From IMG/VR virus record IMGVR_UViG_2671180089_000001, positions 1-64,000 of that record: a stretch of DNA of 64,000 nucleotides; one strand, written 5' to 3'. Both the position numbers and the translations under genes were made by a program. This document shows positions 15,072 to 58,826 of the stretch, piece by piece. The notes beneath the pieces are model-generated. The model was not told where the DNA came from. It ran no database searches and worked only from the letters and a program-made list of their open reading frames with translations. Position 1 is the stretch's first letter. Each line of letters begins with the position of its first letter. The DNA is from a virus. Lineage: Duplodnaviria; Caudoviricetes.

Positions 15072-15118
15072 GTCGGCGGTGCTCTCCACCAACACCCCGA
15101 ATAGTACACCAAGGGAAA
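15072..15118 (-). promoter_or_regulatory. Early box plus AGAGCA leader hairpin
   Basis: TTTCCCTTGGTGTACTATT (15100-15118), then GUUGGUGG-AGAGCA-CCGCCGAC (15072-15093). Confidence 0.8.
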
Positions 15119-15181
15119 TCCAGCAAGCTCCTAACTGGGGAAATACCCAGTCGATTGCCCCGGGCTGACTGTTCCTGCGGG

Positions 15182-15565
15182 TCAGGCGAACGTGGCGGTG
15201 CGCGCCTGGGCCTCGATCACGGCGGCGGCGGCCTCGACGTCGGCCCCCAGGTCAACCCCGGCGCGCCGAAGGTCTTCAAGCAGCTCCAGGGCCGTCGGGT
15301 CGTCGCCCTGGTCGTACGCGGCGATGTGCGCGGCGACCTTCTCGCGCATCGCCACCAGCGCGGTCTCGACAGCCAACAGTCGGCGCAACAGCGGCGGCAG
15401 CGCGGTGCGGGCGTAGTTGCCCAGGGCCTGGGTCGTCCGGCGCCCGGCGACGGTGTCGGCGTGGATCTCGGCGACGTCCAGGAGGACGGGGAACGACGGC
15501 GGGGCACCGGGGCGCAGCGCGCGGTCCAGCTCGGCGAGCTGCTCGGGCTTAGCAGGGATCAGCAC
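15182..15565 (-). CDS. Hypothetical protein
   Basis: RBS GGAG before GTG; helical ORF. Confidence 0.6.
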   Translation of the reverse strand: MLIPAKPEQLAELDRALRPGAPPSFPVLLDVAEIHADTVAGRRTTQALGNYARTALPPLLRRLLAVETALVAMREKVAAHIAAYDQGDDPTALELLEDLRRAGVDLGADVEAAAAVIEAQARTATFA

Positions 15566-15632
15566 AGGGTGGCTCCGATTCGGAAGGGACGCGCCCGGAG
15601 CCGTGACGGGGCTCCGGGCGCGGTGCGGGCGT

Positions 15633-16484
15633 TCAGCGGGCGAGGTACGGGGCGAGAGAGACGAGGAAGTCAACGCCGACGGCGTGAAGGTCGACGGAGG
15701 CCGGGGTGGTGTCGCGCACCCGGGCGGCCGGGTCGGCGGCGGGCGCGGCGTACCCGTACACCCCGGGCCGCGTCCCGAACGCGATGCCGCCCGCGTCGGT
15801 CTGCTCCACGTCCACGCGCTGCGCGAGGAACGCGGCCATGCGGCGGGCGAGACGCCCCCGCACGTTGCGCATCGGCCACGTCTTCGGGTCGAGCGGCTTG
15901 CCAGGCAGGAACTGGGCCACGGCCCGCTCGACGGCGCGCACCGGACCCTCTATCTGGACGTCACACGCGGGGTTGGAGCCGTGCAGGGTGGCCGAGTAGC
16001 GCAGGCCGGCCGAGGACCAGGTGACGGTAGACGTGTTCACCAGGAGCCCGCCCCGCTCGTACGTCGCTGCGCCCTGGGCGCGCATCGCGGCGCCGATCTC
16101 GTAGAGCAGCTCCAGCCGGACGCGGGAGACGTCCTCGCGGGCGCGGGCCGCATCGTCGTCGAGGACGGGCAGGACCAGGCGCAGGATCTCGCGGGCGACG
16201 ACGTCCGGGCGGGAGGAGCAGAACGTGAAGTCCGGCCGGTACGGCTCACGGCCGGGGAGCTGCCACCCGACCTCGGTGTTCCAGGTGTGCCCGTTGGCGA
16301 CCAGGACCAGGGCGCGGGCGCCTTGGACCAGGCGGACGCCGGGGTGCCGGGCGGTCCACCACGGGGCGTAGGGCTCCACGGTCCAGGGGACGCCGGTTCG
16401 CGCGGGGAGCAGTGCGGCGACGTGCTCGGCGAGGGTGCGGGCGGGGCAGGCGACGGGGGCCGGGGCGGCCACGGGCGCGGTCAT
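15633..16484 (-). CDS. Hypothetical protein (paralogue of 16553-17383)
   Basis: Shares AALLPAR.G..W.V and GVDFL...A..L with its neighbour. Confidence 0.75.
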   Translation of the reverse strand: MTAPVAAPAPVACPARTLAEHVAALLPARTGVPWTVEPYAPWWTARHPGVRLVQGARALVLVANGHTWNTEVGWQLPGREPYRPDFTFCSSRPDVVAREILRLVLPVLDDDAARAREDVSRVRLELLYEIGAAMRAQGAATYERGGLLVNTSTVTWSSAGLRYSATLHGSNPACDVQIEGPVRAVERAVAQFLPGKPLDPKTWPMRNVRGRLARRMAAFLAQRVDVEQTDAGGIAFGTRPGVYGYAAPAADPAARVRDTTPASVDLHAVGVDFLVSLAPYLAR

Positions 16485-16552
16485 GTCGTGGGGCCTTTCG
16501 AGGGGGCCGCGCCCCGGTACGAGGGGCAGGGGCGCGGCCGGGCGGGTGAGGG

Positions 16553-17383
16553 TCAGACCAGGTGCGCGGCGGCGGCGAGCAGGAAGTCGACGCCGGCCGG
16601 GGCGACCTGGGCGCAGACCCGGGTGCTGTCGGTCACGGGGTCGCTGAGCTCGGCGCGGGAGGGAAGCGCGATCCAGCCGTGCAGGTCCTGGTAGCCGCCG
16701 AACTCGACCTCGTCGGCGTCGACTGGGCGGAGCTGCGGGAAGCGGTCCGTCAGGTGGCGCGTGAACGGGCTACCGGCGTCCGTGGGGACGTGACCGTGCA
16801 GCGCGGGCAGCAGGACCGGCAGCGCCCCATACAGGCCACTCATGGGCCCCTCGTAGGTCAGCGAGTAGTTCGAGCCCGCACCGTTCGCCCATACGCCCCA
16901 CTCGGCGCCGGACGCGCTCGCCCACTTGATGCCGGGGCCGTCGGGGCGCTCCGTGCTCGCGGGGGACACGCCCTGGTCGATCAGGTGGAACCCGAACTCC
17001 GTAAGCGCGGTGCCCTTGGCGTGCAGAACGTGGTGCCACCCCTTCTCGGCGGCGGCCTCCCGGATCGTCGCGGCGTCCAGGTCGGCGAGGAGCCAGCGCA
17101 GCGCACGTGTGGCGAGCGTGGCGACGGAGGCCGGGTCGGTGGAGTCGACGACGACGTCCGGCGTGTACGGGAACAGGTCGGGACGCTCGCCGTACAGCTC
17201 GACGCGGTTGCCCTCCTCGACGACGAGCAGGGAGCGGCGGCCGTCGGTGATCCGGGACGTAGCGGCGTGGTTGCGCGGGCCGTAGAGCGGGGCGGTGCCG
17301 ACCTTCCACGCCTTGCCCTGGCGGGCGGGCAGGAGGGCGGCGAGCGGCGCGGCGGTGGCCGCCTCGGTGACGGCAGAGATCAC
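16553..17383 (-). CDS. Hypothetical protein (paralogue of 15633-16484)
   Basis: Same shared motifs; AGAGCA leader and RBS upstream. Confidence 0.75.
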   Translation of the reverse strand: MISAVTEAATAAPLAALLPARQGKAWKVGTAPLYGPRNHAATSRITDGRRSLLVVEEGNRVELYGERPDLFPYTPDVVVDSTDPASVATLATRALRWLLADLDAATIREAAAEKGWHHVLHAKGTALTEFGFHLIDQGVSPASTERPDGPGIKWASASGAEWGVWANGAGSNYSLTYEGPMSGLYGALPVLLPALHGHVPTDAGSPFTRHLTDRFPQLRPVDADEVEFGGYQDLHGWIALPSRAELSDPVTDSTRVCAQVAPAGVDFLLAAAAHLV

Positions 17384-17500
17384 GGGGTGTTCCTCGTTTC
17401 GTGGTTCGGTCCGGCGCGGTGCTCTCCGGCCGGTGATGTGGTCATGCGGGTGGGGCTTGTGTCGCGGCCGGCCCCGGGGGCGGGGGTCGGCCGCGACAGG

Positions 17501-17743
17501 TCAGCGGGTCGGTTCGAACCCGGCGACGTCGTCCACCAGGTCGCCCTCGAGGTCGGGGCCGACCTCCTGGTCGTACGCCCGCTGAACGGCTTGGGCGTGG
17601 CCGTCGACCAGGAACTCGTACGCCCACACGTCGCGGCCGTCGAGGATGGCGTCGATCGCCGTCTCTTCTCCGTCCTTGACGGTGTGGGACTCGGTGATCG
17701 TGAGAACCGGGCCGTCCCAGGTGCCGACGAGCAGTACGGACAT
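17501..17743 (-). CDS. Small acidic hypothetical protein
   Basis: RBS AAGGAG; codon bias. Confidence 0.65.
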   Translation of the reverse strand: MSVLLVGTWDGPVLTITESHTVKDGEETAIDAILDGRDVWAYEFLVDGHAQAVQRAYDQEVGPDLEGDLVDDVAGFEPTR

Positions 17744-17799
17744 GGGGCGCTCCTTCCGGGTAGGGGCCGCGCGGTGGGCACGGCCCCGGGGGTGGGCGG

Positions 17800-18219
17800 T
17801 CAGGCGGCGTCGGCGAGCCAGCCCGACACCACGTCGGCGTCCTCGCCGTAGCACTCCGACGTGACGTCCGCGAACGACGCGTCCGGGTCATCCAGCAGGG
17901 TCAGCGCGGCGTTGACCGCGAAGTTGTCGATGTCGTCGGCGACGCCGTTGTGGAGCCGTGCGGCCATGTCGTCAACGGCGCGGTTCAGCGCGGTGGAGAC
18001 CTGGTCCCGGGTGTACGTCTCGTACGTGACCGGGTGCAGGGGAGTAGCCGGCCTCGGCACGGCGAGGACGTTCAGATATGCCCAGAACGCCGACTGTGTC
18101 GCTGCGAAGTCTCGGTTCTCAACGTCTACGCCGGACTCCTCGGCGGCCATGTTGAAACCCTCGCCGAGGGCCTTCTCGACCTGCTCGTACGTGAAGGCGG
18201 TGGCGGGAGTGGTGCTCAT
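17800..18219 (-). CDS. Hypothetical protein with an internal duplication
   Basis: FTYEQVEKAL...DFA and YTRDQVSTAL...NFA repeats; AGAGCA leader. Confidence 0.7.
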   Translation of the reverse strand: MSTTPATAFTYEQVEKALGEGFNMAAEESGVDVENRDFAATQSAFWAYLNVLAVPRPATPLHPVTYETYTRDQVSTALNRAVDDMAARLHNGVADDIDNFAVNAALTLLDDPDASFADVTSECYGEDADVVSGWLADAA

Positions 18220-18352
18220 GGTGGGTGTCCTTCGTTCGGATGTCCGGGCGGTGCTCTCCGGCCGGTATGTGGTCAGGCGGTGGGGGCTTGCGTCGCGCCC
18301 CGGGGCGGCTCGTGTGTCCGGCCCCGGGGCGTAGCGGCGGGGGGCGTGCCGG

Positions 18353-18826
18353 CTAAGCCGACTCGGCGTCACCGGCGCGCAGGTAGCGGCCGGTGTCGAT
18401 GTAGTGCTGGCAGGATGCGGACGACGTGAGGTCCCAGGCGGCGGGGTCGTAGCCGGTGACGGCACGGAGCGCGGCGGCGGCCCGCTCGGCGAGCGCCTTC
18501 AGGCCGTCCCCGGCATACGCCTCCACCAGGTACACACCCCCGGGCCGGTCGGCGACGCCCTCGGGCAGCTCCGGCGACTCGGGAAGGCTGTCGTCCTCGT
18601 ACCCCGTGTACGAGATGGTGAGGTCGCCTTCGTAGTCCACCTCGATCACGAAATCGGCGACGTACGGGTGCCCGGAGATGACGCCGTAGACGCCCCAGGG
18701 GCCGGACTCGGCGCTCCAGCCGGGACCGAGGAGCTGCGCCGTGGCGCGTGCGATGTCGGAGATGCTGAACGGGTACTCCGTGCCGGGCGCGGGCTCGTAC
18801 GCGGCCGGGGCGGTGGCGGTGCTCAT
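18353..18826 (-). CDS. Hypothetical protein
   Basis: AGAGCA leader plus RBS GAGGA. Confidence 0.7.
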   Translation of the reverse strand: MSTATAPAAYEPAPGTEYPFSISDIARATAQLLGPGWSAESGPWGVYGVISGHPYVADFVIEVDYEGDLTISYTGYEDDSLPESPELPEGVADRPGGVYLVEAYAGDGLKALAERAAAALRAVTGYDPAAWDLTSSASCQHYIDTGRYLRAGDAESA

Positions 18827-18923
18827 TGTGGGTTCCTCGCTTCGTTGGTTGGGCCCGGCGTGCTCTCGCCGGGTAGTACGCCGGGCGGGGGGTTCCTGTG
18901 ACGCCCCCGCCCGGCCGTGCAGG

Positions 18924-19460
18924 TCAGCGGCGGTTGCAGGGGCGGGCGTTGTCGACGTGCACCTCGGCCTCAAGGCGGAGGCGCTTCTCCCAGACCTTGA
19001 AGACCTGGCGCAGCCAGTCGTCCGTCCGCTCCCACTGGTGCGGGCCGTCGTCGTGCAGGAGGTGCAGCGCGTGCGCCTGCTCGGCCTCGCGCCGGCCAAA
19101 CTCCTCGAATCCCGGGTTGACCGGGTTCAGGCGGTGAGGGAGCGGGAGTTCGCGGTCGACGAGCGGCACCAGGACGTACTCGCCGAGGTCGGCGGGGAAC
19201 CGGGCGGCCGGGTGCTCCACGGCGATCTGCTCGGCCATGAACAGCTCCTCGGTGGCCTCCAAGGGCAGGTGCTCGTACGCGCCGGGCGGAACGGCGTCGA
19301 ACTCGCGGGCGGCGGCGTCGAGGCGCTCCGCGATGCCGTAGAGGGCGGCGCGAATGTTGGGGTCGGTGGTGAACCGGTCGCGGGCGATCTCGGCGACGGT
19401 GCGGGCGCGCTGGCCGGCCTGGGCGTACTGGTTGACGACCGGAGCCGTGGTGGTGGACAT
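18924..19460 (-). CDS. Hypothetical protein
   Basis: RBS GGAG; codon bias. Confidence 0.7.
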   Translation of the reverse strand: MSTTTAPVVNQYAQAGQRARTVAEIARDRFTTDPNIRAALYGIAERLDAAAREFDAVPPGAYEHLPLEATEELFMAEQIAVEHPAARFPADLGEYVLVPLVDRELPLPHRLNPVNPGFEEFGRREAEQAHALHLLHDDGPHQWERTDDWLRQVFKVWEKRLRLEAEVHVDNARPCNRR

Positions 19461-19538
19461 GGGGGTCTCCGTCTCTGGGGTGTTGAGGGGCCGGGGCGCG
19501 GCGGGGGGAGGCCGCGCCCCGGCGGTTCTGGGAAGGGG

Positions 19539-19976
19539 TCAGGCGGCGGCGCGGGCGGTGGCCGGGCGGCCGAGGCGGAGCGCGGCGAGGAAGTCGGCCA
19601 CCTGGCCGTTCTTCGGGGTGAAGCCGGAGAGGGCGACGGCGCGGATGTCCTCGCGGGTCCAGAGCGCGACGGAGACGACGCGGTGACGCTTCATGCGGGC
19701 GAGGTCGCCGGTGCGGGAGACGGTCAGGCCCTTCTTTCCCTTGCGCTTCTTCGCGGTGGTGGCCGTGCCTGCCTCACGGTCAAGGCCCTTGGCCTTCTTC
19801 GTGATGGTCGCCGCGTAGTTGTGGGCGACGAGCGGGGTAACGCCACCGGCCATCAGGTGGGCGGAGGCGGGGGCGGGACCGGCGGCAACGGCCTTGATGG
19901 CGTTGCGGGTCTCGCGCTGGGCGCGGGTGCGGGTGCGGAGGGTGGAAGCGGCGCGGCGGCTGCGGGCACTGGCCAT
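19539..19976 (-). CDS. Basic (Lys/Arg-rich) putative nucleic-acid-binding protein
   Basis: Very basic; early box (20034-20052) plus AGAGCA hairpin (20006-20027). Confidence 0.7.
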   Translation of the reverse strand: MASARSRRAASTLRTRTRAQRETRNAIKAVAAGPAPASAHLMAGGVTPLVAHNYAATITKKAKGLDREAGTATTAKKRKGKKGLTVSRTGDLARMKRHRVVSVALWTREDIRAVALSGFTPKNGQVADFLAALRLGRPATARAAA

Positions 19977-20162
19977 GTGGTGTTCCTCGTGTTCTTCGTT
20001 GGTTCGTCGGCGGTGCTCTCCGCCAACAAGAGGAATAATACACCAAGGGAAACCAGCAGGGGAAGCCATGATCCGCACGGACCTGGGTTTGCGCAGATGA
20101 GAGCGCGTCCACCCCCCTGGGGAGGGTCGGACGTGTTTCCTCCGGCTTACTGTTCGCGCGGG

Positions 20163-20399
20163 CTAGAACAGGGCGTCGTCCTGGGGCGTGGCGACGGCGG
20201 CCGGCCTGCGGGTGCGGGTGGCGCGCGGCTGGGTCGGTTCGTCCCCGAACAGGGCGTCGGTGCCGTTCGCGTGCGGCGCGGCCTCCACGCGGCGGGCGAC
20301 GGCCTGGGCGTCCACCAGGGTGAGCGGGGCGGCCGGGTCGAAGTCGGCGCGGTGCATGGTGGCCCAGTCGATGCTCTGGGGGCGGGTGGCAGTGCTCAC
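20163..20399 (-). CDS. Small protein with two DALF motifs (possible beta-clamp binder)
   Basis: GTDALFGD and C-terminal QDDALF. Confidence 0.55.
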   Translation of the reverse strand: MSTATRPQSIDWATMHRADFDPAAPLTLVDAQAVARRVEAAPHANGTDALFGDEPTQPRATRTRRPAAVATPQDDALF

Positions 20400-20464
20400 G
20401 GGGTCTCTGCTGTCTCGGGAACGGGGCCGGGGCGCGGGGTGCGCCCCGGCGGGGCGGGGAGCTG

Positions 20465-20911
20465 TCAGGCGGCGACGGTGAGGCGGGCGGGCGGGTGGGC
20501 GGCCTCCTCGCGCATCTCGCGGGCCGTGTCGCGCACAGTGGCCATGACCTCCTCGGCCTGGGCCGGGGTGAGCCGCTCGGCGCCCTCGCGCGGGCCCTCC
20601 TCGGCCTCCACGACCGCGAACACGGCCGCATAGATCTCCGTGACCAGCAGACGTCCCCCCTTCATGCGCTGAGCGATGGAGCCGGGCGCGGCGGCGTTGA
20701 ACTCCTCGCGGGCGGCGGCGACCTTCTGCCCGTAGTAGAGGGCGGATCCCCATCCGCGCTGCATGTACTCCGTGCGGACGGTGGTCTCTGCGATGTGCAG
20801 GCCGTCGCGGATCGCGCGGTTGGCCTGCCCGCGCTCCATCAGGACGGCGCGGACGTACTTGTTCACGACGTCGCGTGCGGCTCGCTCGGTGGCGCTCATC
20901 TTCCGGGCCAT
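20465..20911 (-). CDS. Hypothetical protein
   Basis: RBS GAGGA; helical. Confidence 0.65.
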   Translation of the reverse strand: MARKMSATERAARDVVNKYVRAVLMERGQANRAIRDGLHIAETTVRTEYMQRGWGSALYYGQKVAAAREEFNAAAPGSIAQRMKGGRLLVTEIYAAVFAVVEAEEGPREGAERLTPAQAEEVMATVRDTAREMREEAAHPPARLTVAA

Positions 20912-21008
20912 GACGTGGGGTCCTCTCGTGTGCTGTGCGGGGGCCGGGGCGCACGCGGGCGGCGCGTCCCGGCGGGGAGCTGCGGGGGTCAGGGGTGCGG
21001 CGGCCGGG

Positions 21009-21518
21009 TCACGGCTGGTTGTGCTCGAACCACTGGGCGTCGAGGGCGAACAGGGCGGCGCCAAACTCCTCGGTGCCCGGGACGGCGTCGATGCGGGTCA
21101 GCAGCTTCCGGCCGGCAGCGACGGTGTGCGGGGTGCCGTCGTTGTCCGTCCAGGCGTACGCGGGGCGCTTGGCCACGGTCGCGCACAGGTCGGCGTACTC
21201 GGCCTCGCCCTTGCACTGCGGCGGGACGCCGGGGCCGCACTCGCGGTTGCCCATCGTGGCGCAGTCCCACCCGGTCTCGTCCTCGTCGACCCGGCCGTCT
21301 CGGTTGTCGTCGCCCATCAGGTCGGCGCGCCCGTCGATCCAGCCGTCGTTGTACGTGGTGACGGCGTCGCTCTTCGGGGCGAAGTCGGCCGGGGTGGCGT
21401 CGGACGCTGCGATGGTGCCTGCGGCGCCCAGGATGATCACGGCGGTACCGACGGCGAGCAGGGACGCCGGGCGGGGGCGGCGGGCCAGCAGGCGGGCGAG
21501 ACGGGGGAAGCGCGGCAT
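21009..21518 (-). CDS. Secreted/membrane-anchored protein with a DxDxDG-like loop
   Basis: Signal-like N-terminus; DDNRDGRVDEDETGWDCATMGNRECG. Confidence 0.7.
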   Translation of the reverse strand: MPRFPRLARLLARRPRPASLLAVGTAVIILGAAGTIAASDATPADFAPKSDAVTTYNDGWIDGRADLMGDDNRDGRVDEDETGWDCATMGNRECGPGVPPQCKGEAEYADLCATVAKRPAYAWTDNDGTPHTVAAGRKLLTRIDAVPGTEEFGAALFALDAQWFEHNQP

Positions 21519-21663
21519 GGGGTGTTCCTTCGCTGGTTGGTGCGGTCCCGGTTGCTCTCCGGGGCCGTGGGCGGTGCGCCCTGCGCCCGTTCCGGCGGAC
21601 AGCCGGCCCAGGGGCGGGGCGCACCGCCCGCCGGGGGTGGCGGCGGGCGGTGCGGTCTGGGGG

Positions 21664-21951
21664 TCAGGCCGTAACGGCGCTGTCCGTCATGAAGAACGGG
21701 TTGATAAGGAAGTCGGCGCTGTCGCCGTTAAGGGCCTCGCGGAACCCGGCGGAGCGGTCCCGGGCGACCACGAGGTGAACGGCGGAGCCGGGGACGGCGT
21801 CCTTCACGGCCCAGGCGCGGGCCACCTGGTTGTCGTAGCCGGAGTCGGTGGTGACTCCGAGGTGGTGAACGGCGGCACGGTCGGTGCCCGCGTCGGTGAC
21901 AACCGCGATGAAGAGGTGGAGTTGGGGGGTCTTGTCCAGGGTGACGGCCAT
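21664..21951 (-). CDS. Hypothetical protein, first gene of the leftward early arm
   Basis: Early box 22004-22022 plus AGAGCA hairpin 21975-21994. Confidence 0.7.
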   Translation of the reverse strand: MAVTLDKTPQLHLFIAVVTDAGTDRAAVHHLGVTTDSGYDNQVARAWAVKDAVPGSAVHLVVARDRSAGFREALNGDSADFLINPFFMTDSAVTA

Positions 21952-21974
21952 GGTGTTCCTCGCTTCGTTGGTTG

Positions 21975-22212
21975 GCCCCGGTGCTCTCCGGGGCGACAAG
22001 AAGAACAGTACACCAAGGGAAATTCAGCGCAACCCCCTGAGGTAGGAAACCATAAGAAACCCAGGTGAACGGCTAGGAAGTCGCACTGCGCAGACCCTTT
22101 ATATTTCCCTGGGTTGACTATTCCTCTGGGGTGGGGCTACGTTCAAGGCACGCCACTAAGGCGGGGCCGGGGCGAGCATCCCCGGCCGAACCAACGAACC
22201 GAGGAGCACCCG
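21975..22212. promoter_or_regulatory. Divergent early control region
   Basis: Back-to-back early boxes (22004-22022 minus; 22104-22122 plus); TTGACT-N18-TACGTT; leader hairpins on both sides. Confidence 0.8.
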
Positions 22213-24195
22213 ATGGCTGACACCCAGACGACCGGCATCAAGAACGCGGACGAACTCATCACCCTTGCGGCCGCGTTCGGCCTGACCGTGACGGTCGAGA
22301 GGACCGACCGCGACACGCTCACCTCCTACGTGGTGCGCTTCGCGATCCCCGTCCCCGCCGCGAACGCCGGCACTGAGCTGGGCCGCGCCATCGCGGGCGA
22401 CACCATCACCCTCCTGTGGACCAAAGCGAAGAAGAAGGGCGCACGCGGCCGCCTGGCCGACGCCACCGTCTGGACCGTCGCCGGCCACCGCAAGGCGCGC
22501 ACCCTGCGCGCGGTCACTGCCGCCGTCGACACCCTGGGGCGCAGCTCCAACAAGTACGCCCGCGACGCTGCGCCCTTCCCCGAGGACGTCGTCGACGCCC
22601 CGCACGCCGTGTTCGTCGACGGCCACCAGGTCCACGCGGGCATCCCTGCCGCGCACGTCCGCACCATCGTGAAGAACCGCCGCTTCCGTGGCTGGACCTT
22701 CCACCAGGACGCCGACAAGGCCATCGTGTGCGAGACCCGCCGCTACGTCCCGGTGCAGCCGGCCGCCGCCGAGGAGGCCCCCGCCCCCGTCGCCGACGAG
22801 CGCCAGCACGTTCGGATCACCAACGACGGCCCCGCCGAGGTCATCCCGACCCGTGAGGCCCTGGACGAGATCAACGCCGCGATGATGGAGCCGGAGGTGA
22901 AGCGGACCGTCAAGCGCATGTCCGCGAGCAAGTCGACGGCCCACATCGTCTACCGCGACGGCCGGACCGTGTACCTGCGCCCCGCCACCCCCGGCGACGT
23001 CTTCCCCACCCCGGCGGAGCGCCCCACGGACGCCGAGCTGACCGGCGACATCGACGCAGGGCACGCCGCCTACCTCGCCGAGACGTTCGCCGCCGTCGCC
23101 GACGGTACGGCGCTCCCCGTCCGCGCCGACATGATCCGGCCCGGCATGGACGTGATCCACGCGCACATGGGCGAGACCCGCACCATCGACACCGTCACGG
23201 CCTACGTCGGCGCCCCCGGCGCGCCGTGGGTCCGCCCCTCCTGGACGTTCCGCAGCCACGACGAGAGCACGGCCGGCAGCACCTACCCGCCGGAGATGCA
23301 CCTGATGGTTACCCGCGCCTCCCTGGACGCCGTGTTCGGCCCGGCCCCCGTCGAGGACGCCGCCCCCGCCGCGCCGGTCGACGAGAAGACCCGCCGTTGG
23401 GCCGAGGGGTTCGCCGCGAAGTGGTGGGCCGAGCAGAACACCGGCGAGCCCACCGACGCCGCCCTGGCCGCCGTGTTCGCCCACACGGTGAAGCCGCCGA
23501 AGCCGGAGGCGTACCCGCTCATCCGCGAGGCCATCACCGCACTCACGCCCCCGCCCGCCGCCGCGCCCCTGTTCGCCGCGCACGCCGCCCGTGAGGCCGC
23601 CGAGGAGGCCACCGACCTGACGCCGCGCGCCCTGTCCACGCTCGCCCACCACTTGGAGACCCTGCCGCTCGCCGCGCCCCCCGCGCTGCACGAGAGGCTG
23701 CACGCGGCCCGAGACACCGCCGAGGGTGCGTGGGAGGCCCTGCGGTTCGCTCACAGCCTGGCCGCCAAGACGGCCGCCCGTAGTGCCGCAAAGGACGCCA
23801 TTGTTCGGGCAAGGGCCGCCATCCTGGCCGTCCAGCCGCACGCCCGCCGGATGCACGGCACCGACATGCCACACACCGCCGACAGCATCCGCGCCGCCGC
23901 GCTCGCCTACATGCACCTCGGAGCCACCCCCGACGAGACCAACGCCCTCAAGAACGGCGCCGCCGAGGTACGCATCGACTGCCGCCCCGACACGGGGAAC
24001 GGGTGGACCGTCACCGCCCGCATCACGGCCGGCATCCGGGACGTCCGCTGGTTCCTCCCCGCGCACCCGCCCATCGTCGTCAAGTTCCGCAGGGTCGACG
24101 GCCGCCAGAGCCCCGCCGACAACGCGCGCAAGGTGATCGGGTCCATGCTCCGCGTGGACGTACCCGTCACGTACAAGGACGCCGCGCACCACTGA
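22213..24195 (+). CDS. Large multidomain hypothetical protein
   Basis: 660-aa ORF with high GC3; leader hairpin plus RBS. Confidence 0.8.
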   Translation: MADTQTTGIKNADELITLAAAFGLTVTVERTDRDTLTSYVVRFAIPVPAANAGTELGRAIAGDTITLLWTKAKKKGARGRLADATVWTVAGHRKARTLRAVTAAVDTLGRSSNKYARDAAPFPEDVVDAPHAVFVDGHQVHAGIPAAHVRTIVKNRRFRGWTFHQDADKAIVCETRRYVPVQPAAAEEAPAPVADERQHVRITNDGPAEVIPTREALDEINAAMMEPEVKRTVKRMSASKSTAHIVYRDGRTVYLRPATPGDVFPTPAERPTDAELTGDIDAGHAAYLAETFAAVADGTALPVRADMIRPGMDVIHAHMGETRTIDTVTAYVGAPGAPWVRPSWTFRSHDESTAGSTYPPEMHLMVTRASLDAVFGPAPVEDAAPAAPVDEKTRRWAEGFAAKWWAEQNTGEPTDAALAAVFAHTVKPPKPEAYPLIREAITALTPPPAAAPLFAAHAAREAAEEATDLTPRALSTLAHHLETLPLAAPPALHERLHAARDTAEGAWEALRFAHSLAAKTAARSAAKDAIVRARAAILAVQPHARRMHGTDMPHTADSIRAAALAYMHLGATPDETNALKNGAAEVRIDCRPDTGNGWTVTARITAGIRDVRWFLPAHPPIVVKFRRVDGRQSPADNARKVIGSMLRVDVPVTYKDAAHH

Positions 24196-24398
24196 CCCCG
24201 CCCGGCGCCGCCCGGCCGGATCGGGTCGGGCGGCGCCCTCGAGGCCCCATACGCGCCCGCGCGCGTGTGGACGGTCCAGAAAGTCCAGGAACCCGCGTCA
24301 CCTGCCCCGTTCCCTCTGGGGCGACGCAAGCCGTCTCCGCGCGGCCCACTGCCCGGCGAGAGCACGCCGGGCCCAACCAACGAAGTGAGGAACCCCCG

Positions 24399-25244
24399 AT
24401 GTTGACCCCCCTTGAGCGCGCCGACGAGATGGCGCGTCTGGTCATCGCTGCGGCGCAGCAGGACAACGCCTGTGTTGTGACCGGCGGCCTGGTGGACACC
24501 GTGATGAAGCTGCACGCCGACACGGAGGCGGGGAAGGCGAACCCGGTGACGGTGCGTCGGCTGATCCGGGCCGGCGCCGGGGCCGAGGGGGTCCGCGTCG
24601 TCCTCACCGATGATGAGCGGTACTGGGCGATCCGGGAGCAGCTCCACCACATGGGCGGCGACGAGGTGCACGCGCTGCGCGACAGCATCTCCGACGGCGG
24701 CGAGCTGGACCCGCGCGGCAATGACCGCGTGCTGGTCGAGGCGATCTCCGTGCGTCTGTCGCGGCGTCTGCCTCCGCACCGTCTGAGTGGTGCCGAGCCG
24801 GTCTCCATCCGTCTGTGGGACGAGCCGGAGCCGGACGGAGTCGGGTCGCTCCCGGAGTACGCGGGCCACCCGAGCGTGGTCGCGGCCTTGGAAATCCTGC
24901 GCGCGGCCAGGGTGCCGGTGGCCACGGTCCCCGGGCGCAAGATGCTGTACCGCGACTGGCACAGCCCGCAGGGGCCGCAGGGTGCGTTTCTGTGGACCTA
25001 CACGGGTTGGACGCTCGAGGTGACGTGGTTCATCGACGGCGCCCAAGACGAGCGGGGCATGCGGTCCCGTGACGTCCGCCGTGTGCGGGGTGCCCGTAAC
25101 CAGGCTCTCGACGACGTCGCCGCAGCGTTCCGTGCGGCGGGCTGGACGGCGTGGCGGGTGATGAGCCGTAAGACGGCGACGCGGTGCGATCTCCGCTTGG
25201 ACGTAGCACCCCCGGCGGCCGTGGAGTCCCCGGCCGTCTCCTGA
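24399..25244 (+). CDS. Hypothetical protein
   Basis: AGAGCA hairpin 24351-24372 plus RBS GAGGA. Confidence 0.7.
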   Translation: MLTPLERADEMARLVIAAAQQDNACVVTGGLVDTVMKLHADTEAGKANPVTVRRLIRAGAGAEGVRVVLTDDERYWAIREQLHHMGGDEVHALRDSISDGGELDPRGNDRVLVEAISVRLSRRLPPHRLSGAEPVSIRLWDEPEPDGVGSLPEYAGHPSVVAALEILRAARVPVATVPGRKMLYRDWHSPQGPQGAFLWTYTGWTLEVTWFIDGAQDERGMRSRDVRRVRGARNQALDDVAAAFRAAGWTAWRVMSRKTATRCDLRLDVAPPAAVESPAVS

Positions 25245-25340
25245 CGCCCCCAGTCCCGTTCTCCCGCCCTGTCGCCGTCGTCCTGGTCGCCGAGTGCGTC
25301 CAGACGCGGCGGGGCGCTCCCAGGAAGGCCCAGCCCCGAC

Positions 25341-25703
25341 ATGCCCATGCCCCCGTGGCTCCGCTCCCACCTGCCTGCCGAGCCCACCCGTACGTTCGTC
25401 GCGTTCACCGACGCGGTCGCCGAGCTTTTGGAGCTGCCGCCCGCGCCGCCGGCCGAGGTCTACGCCCGCCGGTACGACACGGACCACGTCTGGATGGTCT
25501 GGCGGTACAAGGACGGCGGCGCCTCCCTGTTCCTCGAGCGCCCATACGGGGAGCTGCGCGACGGCGTGTGGGTTCGCCTGCACTGGCACGAGTCGCCGAA
25601 CCCGGAGGTGGTGGCCGCGATGATCCGGGCCTACGTGCGCCGAGGACGTCGCGAGCAGCGCCGCCGCCCGTGCTGGCTCGTCCGCGTGCTGTTCGGCCGC
25701 TGA
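25341..25703 (+). CDS. Hypothetical protein
   Basis: Codon bias. Confidence 0.6.
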   Translation: MPMPPWLRSHLPAEPTRTFVAFTDAVAELLELPPAPPAEVYARRYDTDHVWMVWRYKDGGASLFLERPYGELRDGVWVRLHWHESPNPEVVAAMIRAYVRRGRREQRRRPCWLVRVLFGR

Positions 25704-25793
25704 GCCGGCCCCGTGATCCCCGGCCCGCACCCCGTGGGCCGGTCCCCTGCGGCGGAGAGCTACCGCCGCAACCCGAAGGAGAGGAACAAGCGC

Positions 25794-26813: not shown

Positions 26814-26980
26814 CAGCTCCCCGGAGTCGGGACCACCCCGAACGCTAAGCCCGGGTGAATCCAGGGGTGCGAATCCCTGGTTTCACCTGGGCTACCCCTT
26901 CCCTAGATTCCCCTGGGTGTACTATTCTTCTTGTTGGCGGGAGAGCAACCCGCCGCAACCAACGAAGGAGGAACACCCCC

Positions 26981-47734: not shown

Positions 47735-48787
47735 TCAGGAAAACAGGAGCTTCCAGGTCAGCGGGCCGGGGATGCCGTCGGCGTCGCCCTTGAGGGAGGC
47801 ATGCGCGAGCTGGAAGTCGCGGACGTTCTTCCGATCCGAGTCCGACCACTTCGGCCCCGGGCCCGAGGTGTAGTGCTTGCCGTAGCCCTTCCGGACGAGC
47901 TGCTGTCCGAGCAGGGTGATGGACGCATTGCTCTTGCCAGGGCCGAACTTGCCGACGCCGGGGAACGGCGGGGCCGGCTTCGCCGTGACCTTGCCCGGCA
48001 GGGTGCCCAGAAGCTCCTTGAGGGAGGTCACGCCCGGGACGCCATCCGCGTCCGCACCGCTGTAGCCGAGGGACTCCTGATAGTCCTGGTAGTTCCTCGT
48101 GTCCGCGTCAGTCCACGTCGGACCCGGGCCCGACGTGTAGTGCTTGCCGAACCCCTTCTTCACCAGGGCCCGGCCGACCTTGGTTACGTGGTCGCCCTTG
48201 GCGCCGTAGCCGTACGTCAGGTCGCTGATGGTGACCTGGGCACGGGAGACCTCGGAGCCGCCACTCGGAAGGGAGCCGCCCGGGTTCGGGGCCGCCTCGT
48301 AGTTCCCGGCCGGCATGCCCGCCTTGACCCAGGCGTACAGCTTGGTGCCGGGGCAGGCGGTCGCGAAGCCGTCCCGGTGGCCGCGCTTGGCCAGGGTGCG
48401 GCCGGTCTTCTTGCCTGCCTCCTCGTACAGCGCGCGGCATGCGGCCAGGGCCTTCGCGCTGGGCTCCTGGTCGCCGCCGATGGCGAACTGGACGCCGATG
48501 CCAGTGGTGTTGTGGTCGGGACAGTGGGCGCCCTGCAGGCCCCAGCCACGGCCCTCGTAGATGTTGCCGGCCTGGTCGATGACGAAGTTGTAGCCGACGC
48601 CGCTCCAGCCGTTGCCCAGGTGCTCCGCCTCGATGGCGCGCATGATCGCGTACCCGGTGCGGGTGATGTGGTGGGCTCCGTCGTAGTGGACGTAGAACTC
48701 GGTGCGCTTGGACAGCGGGACGGATGCCGGGGTGCCGTTCCACGGCTTCGCGCCCCAGGTGGCGCGGGAGATGATCTTTAGAGTCAT
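47735..48787 (-). CDS. Endolysin: amidase_2 domain plus two peptidoglycan-binding repeats
   Basis: [19 protein letters not shown]...IYEGRG...GAHC, GHRD...TACPG; two ...ADGxPG repeats. Confidence 0.92.
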
Positions 48788-50383: not shown

Positions 50384-50431
50384 GAGGAACGTAGAGGGGC
50401 GCGCCGCTTGTGTCGCGTGCTCCACAAAGCA

Positions 50432-50479
50432 TTTCCCTGGGTGTACTATTCGGAGTGGCTGGGAGAGCAACCCAGCTAC
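50432..50479 (+). promoter_or_regulatory. Early box plus AGAGCAA hairpin driving the replication operon
   Basis: TTTCCCTGGGTGTACTATT, then GUGGCUGGG-AGAGCAA-CCCAGCUAC. Confidence 0.8.
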
Positions 50480-50599: not shown

Positions 50600-51202
50600 A
50601 TGTCGAACGACGTCGCCGACGACACCCAGGCCGAGGAGCCCATCGGCGTCCCGCTGTCCACCCTCGCGCTGGTCGGGGCACTTGCCCGCGCGATGGAGGA
50701 CCACCAGCGGGAAGTCATCAAACCTCGGAAGGACGCCCCGCGCGACCCCCTCGTCGAGGACTTCCTGGCGACGAAGAAGCCGGAACTCGTCGTCGAGATC
50801 GACGGCGAGAAGGTGGGCCACTACAAGGTCAACGTCACCAGGGACCGGTTCGAGGTCGCCGACGACTCAGCGTTCGAGGCGTACGCGGAGGAGAAGGGCG
50901 AGATTGACATCGTCATCGTCCCGAAGCCCGCGTTCGTGGATGCAGTTCTTGCACATGCGCAGCGTGACCCTGAGACGGGCACCATCTTCGATTCGCGGTC
51001 CGGCGAGGTCATCCCGGGTCTCCAGTTCGTGTCGGGCGGGAAGCCCACCGGCACCGTCACCTGGACTTGGAACAGGTTCAAGGGGCGCCCGATCGGTAAG
51101 GGCGTACTTCTGGCCGCGTACAAGCGCGGTCGGCTCGACGAGTTCCTCAAGGAGACGCCGGAGCTGTTGCCCAAGGCACAGCCCGGCGCGCGCGACGAGT
51201 GA
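50600..51202 (+). CDS. Phage protein, possibly Gam/Gp157-like
   Basis: DPETGTIFD..SGEVIPGL motif; RBS GAGGA. Confidence 0.55.
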   Translation: MSNDVADDTQAEEPIGVPLSTLALVGALARAMEDHQREVIKPRKDAPRDPLVEDFLATKKPELVVEIDGEKVGHYKVNVTRDRFEVADDSAFEAYAEEKGEIDIVIVPKPAFVDAVLAHAQRDPETGTIFDSRSGEVIPGLQFVSGGKPTGTVTWTWNRFKGRPIGKGVLLAAYKRGRLDEFLKETPELLPKAQPGARDE

Positions 51203-55304: not shown

Positions 55305-55424
55305 GCTATCCCGCCGAGCGGGTAGAATAGTAAGCCGATGGCAACGGCGAGAGGCTAACCCCTCTGCCGTTGCATCCTCCGCGGGAGAGCAACCCGGGGA
55401 ACCACGAAGTAGAGGAACAGCCAG

Positions 55425-57194
55425 ATGCCTGGTATCACCGCGCCTCAGCGCGCCCGCACGTCCCGCCGACCGACTGGCCTGCCGAACCCGCCGATGATCC
55501 TTATCGCGGGCCCGGAGAAGACCGGCAAGAGCCGCGTTGCGGCTGAGGGCACCGCCTCCGAGCTGGTCGGGATGACGTACTGGATCGAGATCGGCGGCTC
55601 CGAGGGCACGGCCGACTACTACGGTCGGATCCCCGGGGCCAACTACGAGATCGTGTCCCACAATGGCAGCTACCAGGACATCCTCGACGCCGTTCGGTGG
55701 GCCGTCGCGCAGCCGCCTGCCGTCGAGGGCAAGCGGAACATGATCGTGGTCGACAACGTGTCCGTGCTGTGGGACATGCTCAGCGACGAGCAGGCCCTCT
55801 ACGCCCGGTGGCGCGCGGAGAGGAAGGCGCAGGAGCAGCGCCGCCGCGGCCCGAACCCGGACCTTCCCGTCACGGTGGACCCCGACCTGTGGAACCGGGC
55901 GAAGGACCGATGGGGAGAGATCCTCTGGCTTCTGCGTCGGCACTCCGGCCCCACGATCCTGCTCGCCCGCCAGGAACTCGTCACCGCGTTCGAGAACGAC
56001 AAGCCGACCCGGGACAAGACCCGCAAGACCAAGGCCGAGAAGAACCTCCCGGCGTCCGTTGACGCCATCGTTGAACTTCACGCGCTGGGGGAGGCGTACC
56101 TGACCGGCGTGCGCACCCTGCACTGGGAAGTCACGCCCGGACAGAGCGAGCGGTTCGAGAATTTCAGTATCGACACCCTGCTCCGCCGCATGGGCTTTCA
56201 GGAGGCCGCGGCCGCCCGACAGGTCACCGAGACGCGGCCGCACGCGTACCTGGACGAGCAGCAGGTGCAGCGGGAGCAGCAGCAGCGCCCCCAGCAGCAG
56301 CGACAGCAGCGGCCCGACCAACGGCAGGGGCAGGGGCCCGCCCGGCAGGACGAGCGGCCGAAGCTGACCGGCGACCAGGCCGTCGAGCTGATCCGTAAGG
56401 CGCTCGCCGACGAGAACAACCCGGAGGCCGCGCTGCACAACATCCGGGAACAGTGGGGCATGGTCACCCTGCGGCAGATCCAGACCCGCACAGAGGCCTG
56501 GGGCGGGATGAACGCGGACGACCTGATCACCCGCTCCCTCGCATACGCCAAGGGCCGCGCCGAACAGAAGCGGCAGCAGGGAACCGGGAGCGCCGGGCAG
56601 GCCCCGTCCGCGCAGCCGAGCACGGCTCCGAGTGCGCCTCCGGAGCAAACTCCGACCGCATCCACGGCCACGCCCCCGGCCCAAGGCCAGGGCCAGGGCC
56701 AGCCGGAGGGTGCCCGCGAGCACCAGACGCACGAGGACCTCGAGCCGCCGGCCGATGACAACGCACCCCCGCCGCCGCCGGACCCCCAGTTCGACGACGA
56801 GCCCCCGGTCGACGAGCGCCCGGAGGAGGTCAGCGAGGCCGAGGAGCCCCAGGCGGCCCCCTCCGCACCGGCAGCCGCCGCGGCGCCTCGGGCAACGCGC
56901 CAGACGCGCGGCGAAAAGCTGGCACTCAAGGCGCTGAACGCCGAGGCAGTCGTCCAGGCCCGGATCAAGATGATGACGGTGGGTGAGCACCTCGGGCCTA
57001 TCTCCGAGGCGGGCGACCCGCCCATGACCGTGCTCCGGGACTACCTCCAGCAGCACCGGCCCGTGATCATCGCCCAGCTCGAGCAGGAGGGGCAGACGGA
57101 GCTCGCCGCCTACTACCGGAAGGCGCCGACCGTCGATCCTCAGATTCAGCAGAGGTTCGCTCAGTACTTCGAGGGCGCGCCCGCCGGGAAGTGA
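55425..57194 (+). CDS. AAA_24/Sak4-like recombination ATPase with a long low-complexity C-terminal region
   Basis: AGPEKTGKS, IVVDNVS; AGAGCAA hairpin at 55382-55396. Confidence 0.75.
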   Translation: MPGITAPQRARTSRRPTGLPNPPMILIAGPEKTGKSRVAAEGTASELVGMTYWIEIGGSEGTADYYGRIPGANYEIVSHNGSYQDILDAVRWAVAQPPAVEGKRNMIVVDNVSVLWDMLSDEQALYARWRAERKAQEQRRRGPNPDLPVTVDPDLWNRAKDRWGEILWLLRRHSGPTILLARQELVTAFENDKPTRDKTRKTKAEKNLPASVDAIVELHALGEAYLTGVRTLHWEVTPGQSERFENFSIDTLLRRMGFQEAAAARQVTETRPHAYLDEQQVQREQQQRPQQQRQQRPDQRQGQGPARQDERPKLTGDQAVELIRKALADENNPEAALHNIREQWGMVTLRQIQTRTEAWGGMNADDLITRSLAYAKGRAEQKRQQGTGSAGQAPSAQPSTAPSAPPEQTPTASTATPPAQGQGQGQPEGAREHQTHEDLEPPADDNAPPPPPDPQFDDEPPVDERPEEVSEAEEPQAAPSAPAAAAAPRATRQTRGEKLALKALNAEAVVQARIKMMTVGEHLGPISEAGDPPMTVLRDYLQQHRPVIIAQLEQEGQTELAAYYRKAPTVDPQIQQRFAQYFEGAPAGK

Positions 57195-57276
57195 CGTGAG
57201 GTGATGCGCGCCCGGCCCCCTTCGGGCGCGCGCCTCCGCCGCTCCGCTCCTCCGCGCTTTCATCACCTCACGTCAC
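57191..57276. repeat. 16-bp perfect inverted repeat of GTGA(C/G/T) units
   Basis: GTGACGTGAGGTGATG / CATCACCTCACGTCAC. Confidence 0.7.
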
Positions 57277-57946
57277 CTCGGCACGGCACGGCGCGCCCGC
57301 CCTCCCCCGTGCGCGCGCTCTGGTGATCGCGCGTCCAGTCCGGGACCGCGCTGCTCCGCGCCCGCGCCGTACCTACCGGCGCGCCCGGGCGCGCGCGTTC
57401 GGGCGCGCTCGGCATCGAGGCGCGCCCGAACGCGCGCGCCGCGCGCCGGCCGTGTGGAGCGCGCCTCCACGCGCGCGCTCAGGCGCGCCGGGCGCGCGCC
57501 GTGCCCGCGCCGATCCGGGCGCGCCCTCCGTAGATCGCGCGCGCCCGGATCGCATGGACCGCGCGCCCGCGCCGAGCCTCCCGCGCTCAGGCGCGCCCGC
57601 AGCAGCGCGCCATGGCGCGCACCGTTGACCTGCCCTTTTACAGGGCGCGCCGCGCGCCTGGCCGTCGCGCGCCACGATGGGCGCGGCCTCCTGGATATCG
57701 TCGGCCACGCGCGCCGGCCGTGTGGAGCGCGCCGCGCGGCGCGGTGATCGCTTCTCAACGGCGCGCGCCCGGCGGCGCGGATGACCAGGCGGGTGCGCGC
57801 CGACCGGCCGATCGCGCGCGCAGGGCCGCGCCCCAGGAACGCGCGCCGCCGCGCCCTCGGGCGCACCCCGGACACGACGAAGGGCGCGCCATCGGGCGCG
57901 CCCTTCGGGGAGGAACGGTCAGCCGGTGGCGCGCCCTATCGCGCGC
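57206..57946. repeat. GCGCGC-saturated non-coding tract
   Basis: About 30 runs of GCGCGC or longer by manual count; 25-bp direct repeat at 57441-57465 and 57709-57733. Confidence 0.85.
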
Positions 57947-58757
57947 CCTGCCGGGCCGCACGGCGGACCGCACGCCGCGCCCTGCGCTCCTCCGCGGCCT
58001 TCTCAAGCGCGCCGCCGCGCTCCTGGCGCAGCAGCTCCATCAGCTCCTCGGGGTGCCGCTCGCCGAGGACCTTGAGCGCCTGAAGCCGAACGTTCGGTTC
58101 GCTCGGCATCCGGCCCTGGCGCGCCTCCCCGTACTGGACGGAGTAGCGCAGGTACGCGGCCTCGGACTCCACGCGCCGGCGGAAGTTCTCGACCCGGCGC
58201 TCCTGTGCGTTGCCGCTCTCGCCCGCGGGCGGCTCGGGCATGAAGCGGGCCGGCTCCTCGATCATGAGGCGGCACAGACGCGCCACTCTCCCGGCTACTC
58301 TCGGTGAGCGGAAAGCAAGGGCCTCGACATGCGGGGACGTCGGGGCGGGCACTGGCTCGTCGAGGACGAAACCTGTCCACCGGTCCGCGAACGAGTCGTC
58401 ACCGAGGGCGGCCAGTTCCTTCGCGTGGTCGTGGGCCAGGTCGTCGACGACGTCCTCGAACGGCGGCATCGCTGCCTTGATCGTCTCTCGCCACGGCGCG
58501 ATGCGGGCCTGCTGCTGCTTCCTGGTCTCGCCCTCCCGGATGGGGTTGTAGGCCTTCGCCCGCTGCACGGCGGTTCGGAGCGCCTGGAGAGTGCGAGGGG
58601 CGAGACGGGGATCGTGAAGGGCGGCGCCCTGGGTCTCGCGCGGCGCGCGCCTGTTGGTGCCACCGGTGACGTACTGGACGACGGTGTCCGTGAAGGCGTC
58701 GGGGCTCATCTCGGACAAACGCTTGATCTCCGCCGCAACCTGTCGGGCATCGGCCAT
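57936..58757 (-). CDS. Hypothetical protein
   Basis: AGAGCA hairpin 58783-58800 plus RBS GGAGGA. Confidence 0.75.
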   Translation of the reverse strand: MADARQVAAEIKRLSEMSPDAFTDTVVQYVTGGTNRRAPRETQGAALHDPRLAPRTLQALRTAVQRAKAYNPIREGETRKQQQARIAPWRETIKAAMPPFEDVVDDLAHDHAKELAALGDDSFADRWTGFVLDEPVPAPTSPHVEALAFRSPRVAGRVARLCRLMIEEPARFMPEPPAGESGNAQERRVENFRRRVESEAAYLRYSVQYGEARQGRMPSEPNVRLQALKVLGERHPEELMELLRQERGGALEKAAEERRARRAVRRAARQGAR

Positions 58758-58826
58758 GTACGTGTTCCTCCGCTTCGGGTGTGACCCGTGCTCTCGGGCC
58801 CTGGTGTCGTACTGCCTGCTGAGACA

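Follow-up and report, generated by a model that had tools for sequence, protein, structure and literature searches.

The stretch of DNA considered here (the window) covers the opening 64 kb of virus record IMGVR_UViG_2671180089_000001, which is 126,324 bp long and has a completeness rating of 97%; the G+C content of the window is 70-75%. Dispersed along it, in front of non-structural genes, is a 5'-leader motif made up of a hairpin with a near-constant AGAGCA loop, a short linear box of the ACCA/CGAA type and a Shine-Dalgarno (SD) sequence. Streptomyces phage Gilgamesh (129 kb, host S. lividans) is a relative, with 80.7% identity at 67% coverage over 14-34 kb, and there is patchier similarity to circular Streptomyces "plasmids" of 125-130 kb. 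Since Gilgamesh carries terminase, portal, capsid and tail genes together with ParA/ParB, integrases and a sigma factor, and the family resembles plasmids of 125-130 kb, it looks like a family of phage-plasmids. Genes of the window genome were called with a GC3-based caller and cross-checked against the Gilgamesh annotation by tblastn, and homology to Gilgamesh placed the virion module at genome 59-113 kb.

An earlier note, made from the letters of the sequence alone, had located 17 copies of the hairpin in the window. The hairpin was present at all 17 positions on the strand given there, and in 16 of them was followed by the box, a GAGGAAC-like SD and an ATG or GTG, with 23-34 nt between the end of the stem and the start codon. 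The exception, at 50455-50479, had been described as lying further from its ribosome-binding site and is a hairpin only, the next start being 121 nt downstream. Stem variants, G-U pairs and the loop variants CGAGCAT and AGAGCTA were also as the note described them. The copies are as follows, with their scores under the covariance model R1 described below.

15040-15093, minus strand: leader copy with hairpin GTTGGTGG/AGAGCA/CCGCCGAC, box, SD and ATG; C5 DNA methylase gene 13723-15042; R1 53.0 bits
17381-17433, minus strand: leader copy with one stem bulge; gene 16553-17383; R1 50.4 bits
18217-18265, minus strand: leader copy with a C.C stem mismatch and a diverged box; gene 17800-18219; R1 45.4 bits
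18824-18874, minus strand: leader copy; gene 18353-18826; R1 44.4 bits
19974-20027, minus strand: leader copy; gene 19539-19976 (arginine-rich protein of pI 12); R1 56.8 bits
21516-21566, minus strand: leader copy with the 7-nt loop AGAGCAA; gene 21009-21518; R1 41.5 bits
21949-21995, minus strand: leader copy; gene 21664-21951, the first leftward of a divergent promoter region; R1 55.1 bits
22163-22215, plus strand: leader copy with the variant loop CGAGCAT; 660-aa gene 22213-24195; R1 39.5 bits
24351-24401, plus strand: leader copy; gene 24399-25244, without a Gilgamesh counterpart; R1 47.4 bits
25748-25796, plus strand: leader copy with loop AGAGCTA; gene 25794-26813, GTG start; R1 34.2 bits
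26933-26983, plus strand: leader copy; gene 26981-27403; R1 44.8 bits
31311-31359, plus strand: leader copy; DpdA gene 31357-32250; R1 43.4 bits
32298-32345, plus strand: leader copy; gene 32343-32693; R1 62.3 bits
44310-44368, minus strand: leader copy, the weakest, with a G.U-rich stem; open reading frame (ORF) 44040-44312, divergent from an ECF-like sigma factor gene; R1 27.1 bits
50455-50479, plus strand: hairpin-only copy with a 9-bp stem and loop AGAGCAA, no ACCA/CGAA box, adjoining a promoter-like motif; 121 nt before gene 50600-51202
55378-55427, plus strand: leader copy with a 4-bp core stem; AAA-ATPase-like gene 55425-57194; R1 34.6 bits
58755-58802, minus strand: leader copy; gene 57936-58757; R1 52.5 bits

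The hexamer AGAGCA alone was weakly enriched (29 against 19.3 expected, a count of 29 being reached in 1 of 100 shuffles). A strict scan, which required AGAGCA at the start of the loop and an uninterrupted stem of at least 5 bp with G.U allowed, found 15 hairpins genome-wide, where 200 dinucleotide shuffles gave 0.675 on average and never more than 4. Fourteen of the 15 were intergenic and pointed to the next gene, the remaining one was intragenic and in sense orientation, and there were no antisense hairpins; in 13 of the 15 the end of the stem was 23-34 nt from a start codon. The exact box AACCARCGAAG occurred eight times, each time just 3' of a hairpin, and the remaining copies had the shorter forms ACCACGAA or ACCCGAAG. 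For model R1, 16 copies with a 6-nt loop were taken from the window and Gilgamesh (alignment A4); earlier MAFFT alignments (A1-A3) had been dropped because their loops were misaligned. These were 16 of the 19 six-nt-loop copies, three copies with GCG/CGC stems having been left out, as MAFFT shifted them by 2 columns, together with every copy with a 7-nt loop, and all the copies left out were recovered by the model. With filters off, R1 found 16 copies in the window at 27.1-62.3 bits, the next match scoring 17.9 bits, and 18 in the whole genome, the two extra ones lying outside the window at 113881-113928 and 114918-114964. Because the SD and start codon are part of R1, its matches are in sense orientation by construction, and it is therefore the hairpin-only strict scan that provides an independent test of orientation. 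No R1 match fell in genome 59-113 kb and no copy preceded the lysin gene 47735-48787, in agreement with the report in the earlier note that the motif is missing before virion and lysis genes.

The anatomy of the leader was established from 131 distinct copies among 137 copies in 12 related elements, a set (alignment A6) that combines the copies of the window genome, inside and outside the window, with those of Gilgamesh, of three plasmids and of four contigs each from Streptomyces genomes and IMG/VR. The stem arms vary (0.4-1.4 bits per position), the uninterrupted stem being mostly 7-8 bp with a range of 4-11 bp across copies, and the closing G-C pair is near-invariant (128/129 and 126/130). 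The loop reads A (122/128), G (126), A (128), G (128), C (128), A (126) with an optional seventh A, the core GAGCA being kept in 126-128 of 128 letters per position. By census of the 137 copies the loop was AGAGCA in 80, AGAGCAA in 34 with a further 7 aligned as GAGAGCAAC, and CGAGCAT in 9; rarer forms were AGAGCG, ACAGCA and AGAGCTA, found twice each, and TGAGCA, found once. On the 3' side there follow a spacer of 0-9 nt, ACCA, 0-2 nt, CGAA(G), 1-5 nt, RAGG-A-R-CACCC and the start codon, with ACCA and CGAA positions kept at 0.88-0.99 and an extended SD consensus of RAGGARCACCC. By eye GAAGnGAGG can pair with the 3' end of 16S rRNA, and part of the "box" is therefore extended SD. Streptomyces 16S rRNA contained no 5-8 nt complement of the loop or of the ACCA(A)CGAA box, and RNAduplex optima were unremarkable. 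The stretch from hairpin to start is 35% A, 38% C, 25% G and only 1.4% U, compared with 11.2% T in the 30 nt before 118 other genes and 15.5% in the genome. ATG was the start codon in 15/17 and in 82% of the 131 distinct copies, GTG in the other 18%. The CGAGCAT loop of the leader of the 660-aa gene was kept in 9/9 orthologous copies, which suggests graded or separate recognition for that one gene.

The earlier note had described the stems as compensating, and in A6 the structure does covary: 96.4% of 746 cells were standard pairs, a share that fell to 67.4% on shuffling and to 57.3% or less when partners were slid, in an alignment fitted to the model and so favouring pairing. Each of the six modelled pairs has changes in both partners, in 163 cells compared with 52 after shuffling, and the covariation score was 0.601 against 0.154. 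Even the raw copies carry unrelated but complementary arms such as GTTGGTGG/CCGCCGAC, CCCGGCG/CGCCGGG, GGCCCG/CGGGTC and GGCTGGG/CCCAGCT. Read on the sense strand there were 50 G.U/U.G pairs and four A.C/C.A pairs, so that selection acts on the sense strand and hence on RNA; a constraint on duplex DNA would be symmetric and a hairpin of the template strand would reverse the bias, and the 50:4 ratio therefore speaks against both. Together with the absence of antisense hairpins from the strict scan this upholds the claim that the motif is always on the sense strand. The hairpin appeared in the minimum free energy (MFE) or centroid structure of 13 of 16 leaders. The leader motif is clearly an RNA structure, with arms free in sequence and a fixed loop.

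Searches of other genomes found the motif in elements of the same kind. R1 matched (E<=0.001) 20 times in Gilgamesh and 17, 12 and 18 times in other related records of 125-130 kb, and gave one marginal match of 18.4 bits in a 180-kb linear plasmid that shares some genes. In four Streptomyces genomes of 8.8-10.2 Mb, for each of which 150 of about 20,000 first-look candidates were scored, 65 of 72 R1 matches (E<=0.01) lay on element contigs, one such contig being confirmed as part of an element by 82-94% identity; the motif was not found in host chromosomes. The seven matches elsewhere scored at most 26.7 bits; of two that were inspected one had no hairpin and the other no start codon. A loose pattern scan of IMG/VR gave at least 116 stretches; among the 80 loci listed five had a true R1 match, all on contigs of this family, with four new ones that are relatives of the window genome, and the rest were chance matches. 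A blastn search with a 77-nt cassette hit Gilgamesh alone out of 50,697 phage records and a single one of 72,556 plasmid records, and is too insensitive for this motif, because R1 finds copies in three such plasmids. Rfam 15 gave no match at the gathering score in the whole window and none at E<=5 over 14900-32500 (17.6 kb, 13 copies), consistent with the view of the earlier note that no described family was recognisable. No description of the motif, of conserved intergenic stem-loops in Streptomyces phages or of Gilgamesh was found in the literature. It is strongly supported that the motif is specific to one element family and, as far as these searches reach, undescribed.

The genes behind the leaders are diverse, the same loop preceding genes unrelated to one another. 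Pfam families above the curated cut-off were found for 2 of 19 leader-linked proteins, a C5 DNA methylase and DpdA, the family for 7-deazaguanine DNA modification; one further protein had a weak AAA_24 match below the cut-off and the remaining ones had no Pfam family. The labels "early" and "replication", which the earlier note had given to marked genes, are to be taken as tentative. Four of 18 leader-linked genes lacked a Gilgamesh counterpart by tblastn with the leader still at the same place, and for one of the four, 19539-19976, a diverged Gilgamesh orthologue, gp129, was recognised by eye. The 660-aa product of the first rightward gene had no Pfam family and no Atlas match. DpdA lies with a PAPS-reductase-like protein in a DNA-modification cluster at 29464-32250, to which the C5 methylase at 13723-15042 may be added, and among these modification genes only DpdA and the C5 methylase have the leader motif.

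A 19-nt promoter-like motif, TTCCCTTGGTGTACTATTC, was counted eight times in the window where none was expected. All but one of these sites stand before an AGAGCA-type hairpin, six at 3-10 nt and one (22105-22123) about 40 nt upstream. The sites are as follows.

15099-15117, minus strand: promoter-like 19-mer TTCCCTTGGTGTACTATTC, upstream of a hairpin
20033-20051, minus strand: promoter-like 19-mer, 1 mismatch
22003-22021, minus strand: promoter-like 19-mer, 1 mismatch, leftward member of a divergent pair
22105-22123, plus strand: promoter-like 19-mer, 3 mismatches, rightward member of the divergent pair, before the CGAGCAT hairpin
26909-26927, plus strand: promoter-like 19-mer, 2 mismatches
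31287-31305, plus strand: promoter-like 19-mer, exact, just after the canonical terminator 31226-31257 and its T-run
50433-50451, plus strand: promoter-like 19-mer, 1 mismatch, before the hairpin-only copy
6302-6320, minus strand: promoter-like 19-mer, exact, then a different hairpin without an AGAGCA loop; before gene 5599-6219

The 19-mer contains TAnnnT and has no -35 of the TTGACA type. A sigma-70 consensus scan of 13501-33500 gave no promoter-like site, and the 19-mer is therefore not a TTGACA/TATAAT promoter; by comparison with consensus sequences we take it to be an actinobacterial extended -10 promoter, and as such it is a putative promoter. With a loose regular expression a promoter-like element was found upstream of 60 of the 137 copies, and in 47 it lay 3-10 nt before the hairpin. 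A hairpin so close to a -10 element is predicted to stand at the extreme 5' end of the mRNA, so that about a third of the hairpins would occupy that end of a primary transcript; the transcription start, and transcription of the hairpin itself, we infer from sequence. Other copies lie 10-25 nt after the GC-rich U-less hairpin of the preceding gene or in other conserved contexts. The 55 nt upstream of the 137 copies fell into several unrelated classes and held no conserved boxA-like element 5' of the hairpin.

The intergenic regions of window 13500-34000 have features of their own. Their spacers, at 70-260 nt, are unusually long for a phage, and nearly every gene on both arms has on its 3' side an 8-12 bp GC-rich hairpin that lacks a U-run (examples lie upstream of 18924-19460, 27501, 28927, 29464 and 30641). 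The single canonical terminator in 20 kb (13501-33500) is that at 31226-31257 with its T-run. The leader hairpins do not have the form of intrinsic terminators: a U-run was missing, the spacer downstream being almost free of U, and none of eight terminator-like sites in 13501-33500 coincided with them.

The reading that we favour, at about even odds (a probability of roughly 0.5), is that the motif is a 5'-leader RNA operator of some 18 non-structural genes, through which one trans-acting factor sets ribosome access and/or decay. The hairpin would protect and mark the 5' leader of the mRNA, while the loop and the ACCA/CGAA box would serve as the docking site of the factor, which would most simply be encoded by the element. 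By acting on all the marked mRNAs jointly the factor would create a post-transcriptional regulon. That the loop stays invariant beside freely changing stems argues for a reader of the loop; a constant spacing of 23-34 nt from the start codon, together with the U-free spacer and the bias to ATG, ties the motif to translation initiation; and the copies adjoining promoters suggest a 5'-end function, as protection from decay. We infer both the binding of the factor and the direction in which expression would change.

A number of observations weigh against this reading. For the element-encoded RNA-binding protein that the earlier note had named as one possibility, Pfam gave no lead: no RNA-binding family was found among about 115 proteins, in a screen in one part of which 25 of 27 families were listed and outside which stood 17 virion-module proteins and three locus-border genes. 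About 56% of copies have no promoter-like element, and a position at the 5' end therefore does not hold for all copies unless it is made by processing. Folding energies were unremarkable, with z-scores of +0.23 to -2.88 and values below -2 in 2 of 16 leaders, and as both SD and start codon lie outside the hairpin in every case, simple occlusion is not the mechanism. No RNA sequencing run matching window 15001-25000 was found, the four runs that contained 6-7% of the sampled words being of DNA or unknown type. Two caveats of method also apply, namely the small share of candidates scored in the host genomes and the fitting of A6 to the model, although with A6 the margin over the controls is large.

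As for the factor itself, one product of a leader-bearing gene is a weak candidate.

19539-19976, minus strand: weak trans-factor candidate, a 145-aa protein of pI 12 with invariant N-terminal arginines

The invariant arginines are at positions 14, 16, 18, 21 and 24, and the gene stands behind a promoter-like motif and hairpin in 11 of the 11 elements where it was found. Its 27 homologues are all "hypothetical", most of them on contigs of 124-131 kb, and no family and no sequence relative in the PDB was found for it. The ESM Atlas model is folded (pTM 0.73), the only named look-alikes being Bro-N/AntA/Rha DNA-binding regulators at TM 0.40-0.45. A bolder proposal, put forward only tentatively, is that the hairpin may be the RNA operator of a new phage-plasmid-borne RNA-binding regulator, maybe this protein, with about 18 operators per genome switching DNA-modification and accessory genes post-transcriptionally. 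Actinobacteria are not known to have Hfq or CsrA.

A simpler account, which seems somewhat unlikely, is that of an optimised expression leader that works without a dedicated factor, a 5' hairpin guarding against decay ahead of an open, U-free A/C spacer, a strong SD and an ATG. The leader of T7 gene 10 has a similar architecture. Such a leader would fit a self-contained hairpin, an SD left unpaired in centroid folds, the scarcity of U in the spacer, the 47 copies in which the hairpin closely follows a promoter-like -10 element and the lack of an RNA-binding family among the screened proteins. A stabiliser, however, needs a stem and not a specific loop, yet GAGCA has been kept almost without change in 12 diverged elements, and the conserved ACCA/CGAA letters have no pairing role and no complement in 16S rRNA.

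It is improbable that the motif is a nut-like antitermination site, at which a boxB-like hairpin and an arginine-rich N-like protein would carry RNA polymerase through the U-less GC hairpins. In lambda, nut consists of boxA and a boxB hairpin bound by the arginine-rich N protein, with one or two sites per genome and no tie to ribosome sites. The two systems share a short hairpin with a fixed purine-rich loop and a variable stem, a linear box and, in part of the copies, a nearby promoter, and here too a conserved small arginine-rich protein is encoded behind one leader copy, the pI-12 protein, which stands behind a promoter-like motif and hairpin in every element where it was found. By eye GAGCA matches the G-N-R-N-A pattern of lambda boxB pentaloops, with an extra A or A...A flanks bringing the loop to 6-7 nt, and U-less GC hairpins that polymerase would have to pass follow most genes of the 13-34 kb arms. 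A nut site, on the other hand, needs neither a fixed distance to a start codon nor one copy per gene; boxA stands 5' of boxB in lambda, but the leader motif has its linear box on the 3' side of the hairpin and nothing boxA-like is conserved on the 5' side; only one canonical terminator was found in 20 kb; and the pI-12 protein is predicted to be folded, with weak look-alikes that bind DNA.

Quite improbable, too, is an RNA processing signal, with an endoribonuclease cutting polycistronic transcripts beside the hairpin to leave single-gene mRNAs that begin with the hairpin, the upstream gene ending in its 3' GC hairpin. Early T7 RNase III sites and Cas6-type hairpins are recognised in a similar way. 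Processing would give all copies the 5' end that is predicted for promoter-linked ones, including the 56% or so without a promoter-like element that lie 10-25 nt after the GC hairpin of the preceding gene. Against it, HNH and RusA-type were the only nuclease families seen, and stems of 4-11 bp are short for RNase III.

A DNA-level site, either an operator centred on GAGAGCAC or a single-stranded hairpin promoter of the N4 kind read by a virion polymerase, is highly improbable. In its favour, HTH proteins are numerous among the products of the genome, which also include an ECF-like sigma factor and a giant virion-module protein of 3912 aa, and the closest analogue, ESAS, was judged to act at the DNA level (PMC3203893). 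Against it, a duplex site would neither keep variable arms complementary nor favour G.T over A.C 50 to 4, the pairs of an N4-type template strand would be A.C mismatches, and nothing marks the 3912-aa protein as a polymerase. That protein is encoded outside the window (genome 84521-96259, minus strand) and has Gilgamesh gp48 (4624 aa) as its counterpart; it was considered as an N4-like polymerase, and no sequence match was found in Pfam, PHROG or the PDB.

Comparison with other dispersed elements places the motif close to several of them in behaviour. PeSL (promoter-early stem-loop, of T4-type phages) and CUP (of IncN plasmids) are DNA-level promoter or recombination modules. They resemble the leader motif as promoter-and-hairpin cassettes between accessory or early genes, where the cassettes seem to stay and the genes to be exchanged, but in the leader conservation reaches as far as the start codon and takes in a covarying RNA hairpin, and a promoter-like element is missing from over half of the copies. 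The comparisons with nut, PeSL and CUP made in the earlier note thus fit in part; its fourth, CsrA/RsmA sites, was rejected, since no loop among the 137 copies contains GGA.

The stoperators of mycobacteriophage L5 (PMC3203893) are conserved 13-bp asymmetric DNA repressor sites. They too are dispersed in short intergenic regions and oriented with transcription, whereas the fixed part of the leader motif is a 6-7 nt loop between variable but paired arms. The closest analogue is the SAS/ESAS system of cluster K mycobacteriophages, described in 2011 (PMC3203893), resurveyed in 2025 (PMC12699233) and still unexplained in function. In both systems the 11-19 copies of a genome share one orientation and stand close before start codons, at a distance of a few bases; both mark only non-structural genes of unrelated families with an enrichment of ATG, overlap or extend the SD and are absent from host genomes, a likeness of behaviour and not of sequence. 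The linear 13-mer that defines SAS, GGGATAGGAGCCC, shows no enrichment here (2 against 2.48 expected with up to 2 departures, neither at a leader copy). ESAS (PMC3203893) consists of 17-bp inverted repeats with conserved arms whose departures, in the view of the authors, lend no support to RNA pairing, the reverse of the leader motif with its free, covarying arms and fixed loop. Host genus and phage family differ as well, cluster K mycobacteriophages on one side and Streptomyces elements on the other. By its sequence the leader motif is not a member of the SAS/ESAS family.

Start-associated motifs of actinobacteriophages have been known since 2011, and the 2025 survey (PMC12699233) still asks for functional tests. 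Since the motif is an RNA structure whose loop is invariant, clear-cut outcomes can be predicted for mutants of the loop and for disruptive and compensatory mutants of the stem, and as Gilgamesh is in culture and grows on S. lividans, a tractable host, the motif is directly testable. If the regulon reading is true this would be a phage-borne post-transcriptional regulon in Actinobacteria. A dedicated reader, if one exists, would make a new RNA-protein pair for gene control in Streptomyces and maybe a portable expression or insulation part for this genus of biotechnology. The motif is already of use for placing start codons and as a marker of the phage-plasmid family in genome assemblies. For Gilgamesh (MN234216) the leader predicts that the DNA methylase gp137 starts at ATG 118268, 15 codons inside the ORF annotated from 118223, and that the FtsK-like gp10 starts at ATG 9007, in frame and 46 codons upstream of the annotated 8869; both deposited starts may be wrong.

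A second dispersed motif, GCGACRCAAGC, was present in five exact and five one-mismatch copies, 9 of the 10 being intergenic and co-oriented with the next gene. Sites lie on the minus strand at 8140-8150, 10815-10825, 11344-11354, 11760-11770, 17455-17465, 18286-18296, 50406-50416 and 59485-59495, and on the plus strand at 24321-24331; three sites precede an AGAGCA hairpin by about 45 nt. In raw numbers, 10 copies against 6.2 expected, the motif was not significantly enriched, and local folds were inconsistent. Proteins encoded in window 1-40347 include Prenyltransf (undecaprenyl-diphosphate-synthase-like) and PAP2 phosphatase families, which are unusual phage cargo. The ECF-like sigma factor gene, at 44638-45243 on the plus strand, has Sigma70_r2 and Sigma70_r4_2 and is divergent from the leader-bearing 90-aa basic ORF 44040-44312 on the minus strand. 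Among the element proteins there are also HTH_31, DUF5753 and HATPase_c_2, families typical of Streptomyces loci of the WhiJ/AbaA type.

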